DNA of 31,024 bases from Escherichia coli (GTDB taxonomy: Bacteria > Pseudomonadota > Gammaproteobacteria > Enterobacterales > Enterobacteriaceae): assembly GCF_003334305.1 (NCBI RefSeq), contig NZ_QOWS01000035.1; one strand, written 5' to 3'. This document shows, piece by piece, positions 27,058 through 27,131 of this stretch. Under the pieces are notes generated by a model, which did not search any database, was not told the origin of the DNA, and was given only the letters and a program-made list of their open reading frames with translations. Positions within the stretch are counted from its first letter, which is position 1. Every line of letters starts with the position of its first letter. Made by a program: the position numbers and the translations under genes.

Positions 27058-27095
27058 GCGCAAAAAGGCTGGTGACTAAAAAGTCACCAGCCATC
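27058..27095 (-). terminator. rplL-rpoB intercistronic attenuator (partial terminator)
   Basis: Minus strand GGCTGGTGAC-ttttta-GTCACCAGCC (10-bp stem) followed by TTTTTGCG, about 35 nt after the rplL stop. A second hairpin at 27095-27114 (cagcctga-tttc-tcaggctg) is adjacent. Confidence 0.8.
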
Positions 27096-27131
27096 AGCCT
27101 GATTTCTCAGGCTGCAACCGGAAGGGTTGGC

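Follow-up and report, generated by a model that had tools for sequence, protein, structure and literature searches.

Tandem hairpins between rplL and rpoB in Escherichia coli very probably correspond to the partial terminator tL7 and a conserved hairpin directly upstream (Rfam P26)

In Escherichia coli, rpoBC is co-transcribed with rplKAJL, and an attenuator uncouples the expression of the ribosomal proteins from that of beta/beta' (PMC4670729). This attenuator, tL7, lies between rplL and rpoB and is a partial Rho-independent terminator that stops about 80% of transcripts (PMC4324240); termination of about 70% has also been given for it (bioRxiv 10.1101/2021.11.05.467461). It is the E. coli homologue of P26 of Pseudomonas (PMC4324240). 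Here, we analyzed two hairpins that stand in tandem in the rplL-rpoB spacer of a 31,024-nucleotide (nt) stretch of E. coli DNA (NCBI RefSeq assembly GCF_003334305.1, contig NZ_QOWS01000035.1), the whole of which is called the window. The element they form is, with high confidence, tL7 together with a conserved hairpin directly upstream of it, a pair that is curated in Rfam as RF00630 (P26). The original description of tL7 as a partial terminator is said to go back to Barry, Squires and Squires in 1979/1980 and to Morgan and Hayward in 1987.

P26 was predicted in Pseudomonas aeruginosa by sRNAPredict2 as a 65-nt element (Livny et al. 2006). In PAO1, it lies 4 nt past a 366-nt gene and 151 nt ahead of a 4071-nt gene on the same strand, and Northern analysis in P. 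aeruginosa gave a signal of about 250 nt with multiple bands, which the authors explained by overlap with neighbouring untranslated regions (UTRs) (Livny et al. 2006). Qi et al. 2014 (PMC4324240) then established that P26 terminates transcription partially. Its read-through is increased in rifampicin-resistant rpoB mutants of P. aeruginosa and accounts for 70% of the variance in rpoB mRNA, and rifampicin promotes read-through of tL7 in E. coli (PMC4324240). Read-through of tL7 underlies the homeostatic recovery of polymerase synthesis after rifampicin or after resistance mutations in rpoB (PMC4324240).

Coordinates are given as window positions, and all RNA features of the spacer are on minus-strand RNA, the rplKAJL-rpoBC genes being encoded on the minus strand of the window. 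The rplL coding sequence, for L7/L12, occupies 27132-27497 according to the list of open reading frames (ORFs), the RefSeq annotation of the identical E. coli stretch and homologues named 50S ribosomal protein L7/L12. Between its TAA stop codon (27134-27132) and the rpoB ATG (26812-26810) lies a spacer of 319 nt. A 551-nt query spanning this spacer found a match in 5,421 of 5,426 complete E. coli genomes. The best match was at least 99% identical in 5,419 of them, with rplL and rpoB annotated on either side and no feature between. Since the stretch is near-identical in E. coli genomes, the window represents the E. coli rplKAJL-rpoBC region in reverse orientation. Two of 5,424 matches in complete E. 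coli genomes sit on records labelled plasmid, and one complete genome has the rplL-rpoB region divided across the start of its record.

The terminator hairpin (27067-27092) is a perfect stem of 11 base pairs (bp) formed by the arms GGCUGGUGACU (27092-27082) and AGUCACCAGCC (27077-27067) around a UUUU loop. Seven of the pairs are G-C, and the predicted energy is -20.5 kcal/mol. A tract of five U residues (U5, 27062-27066) stands directly 3' of the stem, giving the anatomy of an intrinsic terminator, a GC-rich stem-loop followed by UUUUU on the transcribed strand. The original prediction had described a perfect 10-bp stem with a U-tract right after rplL, which agrees with this to within one base pair, as the stem has 10 bp if the loop-closing U-A pair is not counted. 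A second stem of 8 bp, predicted nearer to the rplL stop codon, was recovered at exactly the same place. This hairpin 1 (27095-27114) pairs CAGCCUGA with UCAGGCUG around a GAAA tetraloop at -13.1 kcal/mol, is part of the Rfam P26 consensus and starts 17 nt past the stop codon. It is joined to the terminator by a 2-nt linker, AU (27093-27094), as seen in the alignments. A further, weak hairpin that was not among the stems predicted earlier, hairpin 0 (27115-27129), lies upstream of both and has a 5-bp stem, CAACC/GGUUG, a 5-nt loop and an energy of -4.6 kcal/mol. It is conserved only in some Enterobacterales and Pseudomonadaceae and is absent from the Pragia group and from Vibrionaceae.

An 80-nt segment folds at -42.2 kcal/mol, compared to -20.5 +/- 2.7 kcal/mol for 200 dinucleotide shuffles (z = -8.1), none of which folded as well. 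The whole spacer is also unusually stable (335 nt folded, z = -7.5). A simple terminator-pattern scan of a 1.9-kb stretch showed no enrichment (3 found, 2.1 expected). Structure, conservation and family membership are shown by the present analysis. RF00630 matched 27127-27066 on the minus strand with 74.5 bits against a gathering score of 36 and with E = 5e-15, and the element is therefore far beyond chance. The match spans the full model (positions 1-66 of 66), whose consensus structure consists of both hairpins. It starts 5 nt past the rplL stop codon and ends 253 nt ahead of the rpoB ATG.

The in vivo 3' end of tL7 is established by published work, as are its partial termination and read-through response. 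The original prediction proposed Term-seq as a check for a 3' end near 27060, and such data had already been published for E. coli MG1655, with an RNA 3' end at 4180995(+) (Adams et al. 2021, supplementary file 1). This end is flanked by AGTCACCAGCCTTTTT on its upstream side and GCGCTGTAAG on its downstream side, which places it on the last U of the tract, at about 27062 (+/-1) in the window (Adams et al. 2021). It is very strong, scoring 61,409 and 23,672 in two growth conditions, while the values for the neighbouring ends, one after rplJ and one inside rplL, are 1,230 and 865, about 50 times less (Adams et al. 2021). It is also the sole 3' end listed between rplL and 4183172, inside rpoB (Adams et al. 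2021). Neither rplL nor rpoB has an entry in the table of Rho termination from the same study (supplementary file 2), which lends weak support to the factor independence of tL7.

None of the evidence collected contradicts the assignment as a terminator. Some points do weigh against the full reading of the pair. The termination efficiency and read-through figures (70-80%) come from the cited papers. Effects of Rho and NusA in the rplL-rpoB spacer were reportedly found by Ralling and Linn in 1987. Our literature search found no functional data on hairpin 1. Finally, in a model with 186 nt of upstream context, the terminator paired with a probability of 0.99 regardless of whether hairpin 1 was left intact, mutated or removed; therefore, a simple role of hairpin 1 as a folding insulator is unsupported at equilibrium. 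The tL7/P26 element was already known, and the finding is correct but ordinary: the role of tL7 is textbook and published, and finding it again adds nothing new.

Next to this, the comparison of loci makes a modest addition, namely that the hairpins, their 0-2-nt spacing and their distance of 16-18 nt from the stop codon are kept from Escherichia to Vibrio and Pseudomonas and that the terminator stem is frozen, unlike that of the rpoC terminator. Across Enterobacterales, Vibrionaceae and Pseudomonadaceae, 27 loci carry both hairpins. Species-representative genomes were scanned with a pattern that fixed only the 3' arm of hairpin 1, the linker and the loop. The scan returned 24 loci; it is no census, since species with exact matches were missed, including the E. 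coli and Salmonella representatives and most Enterobacteriaceae. The element stood directly 3' of rplL in 21 of the 24 loci, and the other three were chance matches without a stem. Twenty of the 21 loci are labelled Enterobacterales (Klebsiella, Citrobacter, Pluralibacter, Yersinia, Brenneria, Pectobacterium, Samsonia, Pragia, Limnobaculum and others). The twenty-first (L024, NZ_JAHBAV010000161.1) is a 477-bp contig of low coverage labelled Dietzia massiliensis, with an enterobacterial rplL 3' end and a perfect tL7/P26, and is almost certainly enterobacterial contamination of an actinobacterial assembly. When metagenomes were scanned with a G-C variant of the pattern, one contig was found, apparently the same contig of a metagenome-assembled genome (MAG) as locus L007, judging by their shared length of 20,558. 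Only Enterobacterales were among the matches listed in a first search with the RplL protein. An RplL-based fetch, which does not depend on the motif, recovered the same layout in four genera of Pseudomonadaceae and four of Vibrionaceae, and these eight loci scored 45-79 bits with Rfam P26, all above the gathering score. The order rplL-P26-rpoB is common to PAO1 and all fetched loci.

In a model-guided alignment of the 27 loci, 97.9% of the cells of 17 pairs were paired, and four pairs had changed on both sides. The covariation score was 0.171, compared to 0.110 +/- 0.008 for column shuffles (0 of 500 reached it) and at most 0.074 for slid partners. This alignment was fitted to the structure model and so favours structure; an unfitted MAFFT alignment of 17 Enterobacterales gave the same picture. 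In hairpin 1, the outer pair changes from C-G to U-A in the four Vibrionaceae, and the seventh pair is G-C, A-U or G-U. The terminator stem is fully paired in all 27 loci, and its ninth pair changes from A-U to G-C in 8 of the 27. The 5' side of its lower eight pairs never changes, and the U5 tract is likewise unchanged in 27 of 27. Hairpin 1 begins 16-18 nt after the stop codon in all three groups, with unconserved sequence between, and is 0-2 nt away from the terminator (1 nt in V. cholerae, or 0 in another reading). The linker is AU in Enterobacterales, Pseudomonadaceae, V. cholerae and Grimontia and UU in Photobacterium and Salinivibrio.

The terminator downstream of rpoC (below 18484) served as a control in nine of the same genomes. 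Its hairpin has a different sequence in each genus, which means that constraint on the tL7/P26 stem is much stronger than on an ordinary terminator. Such constraint is expected if the efficiency must stay intermediate and sensitive. The two arms of the tL7/P26 stem have not evolved alike: wobble pairs have arisen through substitutions in the 3' arm (A to G in Pseudomonadaceae and Vibrionaceae, C to U in Yersinia), and the 5' arm is fixed. We considered this asymmetry as a sign of sequence-specific recognition and downgraded it. A neutral explanation suffices because, when one arm is rich in G and U, pairs survive only those mutations that fall in the opposite arm.

What hairpin 1 contributes is less firmly held. 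The original prediction attributed the uncoupling of ribosomal-protein from RNA-polymerase stoichiometry to the tandem arrangement as a whole. Published work (PMC4324240, PMC4670729, bioRxiv 10.1101/2021.11.05.467461) establishes this for the terminator only, and a contribution of hairpin 1 to the uncoupling is hypothetical. Our best guess, at low confidence, is that hairpin 1 is an accessory element of the terminator module. With similarly low confidence, it may add to the barrier against 3' exonucleases and so give rplL mRNA a stable 3' end, or it may be a context or pause element that helps to fix the efficiency of termination. By analogy to the S10 attenuator, which depends on uL4 and NusA, it may also be a protein-binding hairpin.

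The conservation of hairpin 1 in three orders, at a fixed position and with compensatory changes, would fit a functional partnership with the terminator in an attenuator that depends on a factor or a pause. In one form of this proposal, hairpin 1 stabilizes a pause a few nt into the 5' arm of the terminator; in another, it binds a protein (NusA, a polymerase subunit or some other factor) through which the efficiency of termination is set or sensed. Both forms are compatible with the assignment to tL7/P26 and would refine it. The exceptional sequence conservation compared to the rpoC terminator fits a multipartite signal, and there is a precedent in the NusA-dependent S10/uL4 attenuator, where an upstream hairpin (HD before HE) exerts control. 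The segment GGCUGAUGGCUGGUG (27099-27085), which joins the 3' arm of hairpin 1, the linker and the 5' arm of the terminator, is invariant in all the Enterobacterales and Pseudomonadaceae examined. G(-10)Y(-1)G(+1) is the pause consensus, and in our own reading of the sequence this 15-mer holds such registers at U27086/G27085 and U27089/G27088. However, the neutral explanation given above also covers the invariant 5' arm and the wobble drift of the 3' arm. In addition, V. cholerae, Grimontia and Photobacterium have A instead of G as the last base of hairpin 1, with a compensating change, the position is apparently absent from the 3' arm in Salinivibrio, and the linker varies; therefore, the 15-mer is not universally fixed. 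On balance, we regard a factor- or pause-dependent partnership as rather unlikely.

There is a small chance that GGCUGAUGGCUGGUG is itself a sequence-specific signal, perhaps a hairpin-stabilized pause shortly ahead of the point of termination or a site for NusA, RNA polymerase or another factor. If this were true, the signal would let the cell sense polymerase activity and set read-through accordingly, and it would explain why the lower stem is unchanged in three orders of Gammaproteobacteria while ordinary terminators turn over fully. The 15-mer has no second copy or complement in the 31-kb window at up to 3 mismatches. In the Pseudomonadaceae loci (L026-L029), a 10-mer, GCUGAUGGCU, occurs twice, once across the 3' arm of hairpin 1, the linker and the 5' arm of the terminator (about 1900-1915) and once at the rpoB start codon (CGCUGAUGGCUUAC, about 2085-2095). 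This duplication may be a coincidence or a shared recognition sequence.

The finding that terminated transcripts finish at a hairpin followed by U5, with two stable hairpins adjoining each other (-13.1 and -20.5 kcal/mol), could also mean that the pair serves mainly RNA stability, by blocking 3'-to-5' exonucleases twice over. The abundant rplKAJL mRNA would then be protected, with a stable remnant of about 60-70 nt, the 'P26 sRNA', left behind, and termination would be the work of the second hairpin only. Signals for a P26 probe in exponential and stationary phase in P. aeruginosa (Livny et al. 2006) agree with such a fragment, but the Northern bands, at about 250 nt and multiple, were put down to UTR overlap rather than to a discrete 65-nt species. 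Moreover, a single terminator hairpin already protects most mRNAs, and the fixed spacing of 0-2 nt is left unexplained. We consider this account of the pair doubtful.

The same Northern signals, together with the sRNAPredict2 prediction, the Rfam type 'Gene' and a survey in which P26 ranked among the most widespread small RNAs (sRNAs), would suit an independent gene for a trans-acting sRNA. This is very improbable for several reasons. The element starts a few nt past the rplL stop codon on the same strand, and a scan upstream of it gave no promoter-like site. The discoverers themselves ascribed the bands to UTR overlap, and later work found a partial terminator (PMC4324240). Nearly all of the 62 nt are locked in the two hairpins, which leaves no single-stranded seed, and no complementary target was found in the 31-kb window.

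Two features of the sequence could suggest a switch that chooses between termination and read-through by means of a leader peptide or an antiterminator fold. The pentamers CAGCC and GGCUG each occur twice, so that alternative pairings can be drawn, and a 13-codon ORF (MAGDFLVTSLFAL*) that starts with an AUG at 27094-27092 crosses the terminator. An antiterminator made from the CAGCC/GGCUG repeats was rejected, as the enforced pairings reach -16.4 and -15.2 kcal/mol compared to -34.7 kcal/mol for the two-hairpin fold and are thus 18-19 kcal/mol worse. The ORF (AUG GCU GGU GAC UUU UUA GUC ACC AGC CUU UUU GCG CUG UAA, 27094 to 27053) keeps an in-frame TAA or TAG in 17 of 17 aligned Enterobacterales and is not conserved as coding elsewhere. 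It was rejected as a leader peptide as well: it has no Shine-Dalgarno sequence, its AUG adjoins hairpin 1 and is gone in Photobacterium and Salinivibrio (AUUGG/UUGG), the Pseudomonadaceae have a different frame and stop codon, and the substitutions seen are non-synonymous and compensate the stem. A switch-type attenuator is effectively refuted, with next to no probability left. Since there is neither an antiterminator nor a conserved leader peptide, tL7 is taken to be a constitutive, tuned leaky intrinsic terminator and not a switch operated by a ribosome or a ligand; the experiments cited above show that its read-through follows the kinetics of the polymerase.

As a leaky terminator, tL7 most probably works as follows. 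RNA polymerase leaving rplL makes the 11-bp GC-rich hairpin and the five U residues, and the majority of complexes release their RNA at the U-tract. A minority continue into the structured leader of 250 nt and into rpoBC. In this way, a single promoter supplies mRNA for ribosomal proteins in several-fold excess over that for the polymerase subunits. The incompleteness of termination lets read-through rise with a slowed or defective polymerase, and polymerase synthesis is thereby restored.

The rest of the leader (26813-27057) was also suspected to hold structure in the original prediction, and covarying helices, together with a published RNase III substrate cited in PMC2777011, bear this out. 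A consensus fold was obtained from 17 Enterobacterales with RNAalifold and pair counts. It has 22 pairs changed on both sides, compared to 11.4 +/- 1.8 in shuffles. Hairpin A (27017-27049) has an 8-bp stem, seven of whose eight pairs are changed on both sides, and a conserved loop, UUUCACACUGUUU. A long interrupted helix (26911-27007) pairs 27007-26982 with 26934-26911 and, at its apex, 26976-26972 with 26949-26945; nine of its 26 pairs (21 + 5) are changed on both sides. According to the passage of PMC2777011 that cites Barry et al. 1980, the rplL-rpoB spacer is a substrate of RNase III. The modelled long helix, with its interrupted 21 pairs and 5 apical pairs, has the length of about 20 bp or more that RNase III calls for, and it is probably the best candidate for the processing site referred to in that passage. 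One RNase III survey lists neither rplL nor rpoB in its supplements.

Two small conserved hairpins, B (26908-26890) and C (26864-26846), follow within 26846-26908 with two compensatory pairs each. An internal sigma-70 promoter was considered for the invariant block UUUCUAUCGACGACUUAAUAUACUG and rejected: the spacing of the hexamers is far too short, the promoter scan was empty there, and the block is one arm of the long helix. The region of translation initiation of rpoB (26802-26822) is invariant and is predicted to form a hairpin between the Shine-Dalgarno sequence GAGGAACC and codons 1-4 (GGUUUACUC); of the AUG (26812-26810), the first two bases lie in the loop. All eight pairs of this hairpin are invariant in the 17 Enterobacterales, so covariation neither supports nor refutes it. 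The P26 module and the initiation region are recognisable in Pseudomonadaceae and Vibrionaceae as in E. coli. In the middle of the leader, the Pseudomonadaceae sequence is unrelated, and some short blocks are still recognisable in Vibrionaceae.

Several other RNA features were observed in the window and in the neighbouring operon. Two Rfam families scored above their gathering scores and are expected for this region of E. coli: the sroH sRNA (17570-17730, plus strand, 201 bits) and the TPP riboswitch (11777-11877, plus strand, 74.8 bits), presumably the thiC leader. In the rplJ (L10) leader (28079-28415, minus strand), matches below threshold were seen to Arrc08, an Actinobacillus sRNA (38 bits, gathering score 219), and to Vibrio AS5 (30 bits, gathering score 96), and these 'sRNA' families are probably homologues of the L10 leader. 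Published Term-seq data also have a 3' end inside the rplJ leader, at MG1655 position 4179776. In all four Pseudomonadaceae loci (L026-L029), Rfam P27 (RF01674) matched at about 720-925 on the minus strand with 83-208 bits, antisense across the rplA-rplJ spacer; the matched spacer is the L10 leader region read in antisense. The rpoB-rpoC spacer (22708-22783, minus strand) contains a GC-rich hairpin in each genus that was examined, the sequences being unrelated and the lengths differing (81-146 nt). Almost no variation is seen in the 25 nt that directly precede the rpoC GTG (CUAACUCCGACGGGAGCAAAUCCGUG).

Compared to the known systems, the element shows no difference from the tL7 attenuator of E. 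coli. The locus and the organism are the same, and the 3' end lies about 70 nt past rplL; it is the described element itself. With Pseudomonas P26 it has in common the two hairpins, the position after rplL and a near-identical core (CAGCC...GGCUGAUGGCUGGUG.C...G.CACC.GCCUUUUU). The two differ in hairpin 1, which is a compact 8-bp stem with a GAAA tetraloop in E. coli and a stem of 5 bp that has an internal loop and additional pairs in Pseudomonas, and in the loop of the terminator, where UUUU is closed by C-G and U-A in E. coli and 4 nt sit directly on G-C in Pseudomonas. Downstream, E. coli has GCGCU where Pseudomonas has CCGUU, and the leader to rpoB is 250 nt in the former and about 150 nt in the latter. 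The S10 leader attenuator (HD/HE) is likewise an intrinsic terminator within a ribosomal-protein unit, with a conserved hairpin just upstream, that tunes the genes downstream. In contrast to tL7/P26, which sits between genes and for which no binding protein is known, the S10 attenuator is in a 5' leader, and its upstream hairpin binds uL4, which regulates NusA-dependent termination. The leader-peptide attenuators (trp, his and pheM) share premature intrinsic termination ahead of the regulated genes. Unlike them, tL7 has no translated leader peptide or antiterminator, and its efficiency is constitutive and responds to the kinetics of the polymerase rather than to charged tRNA.

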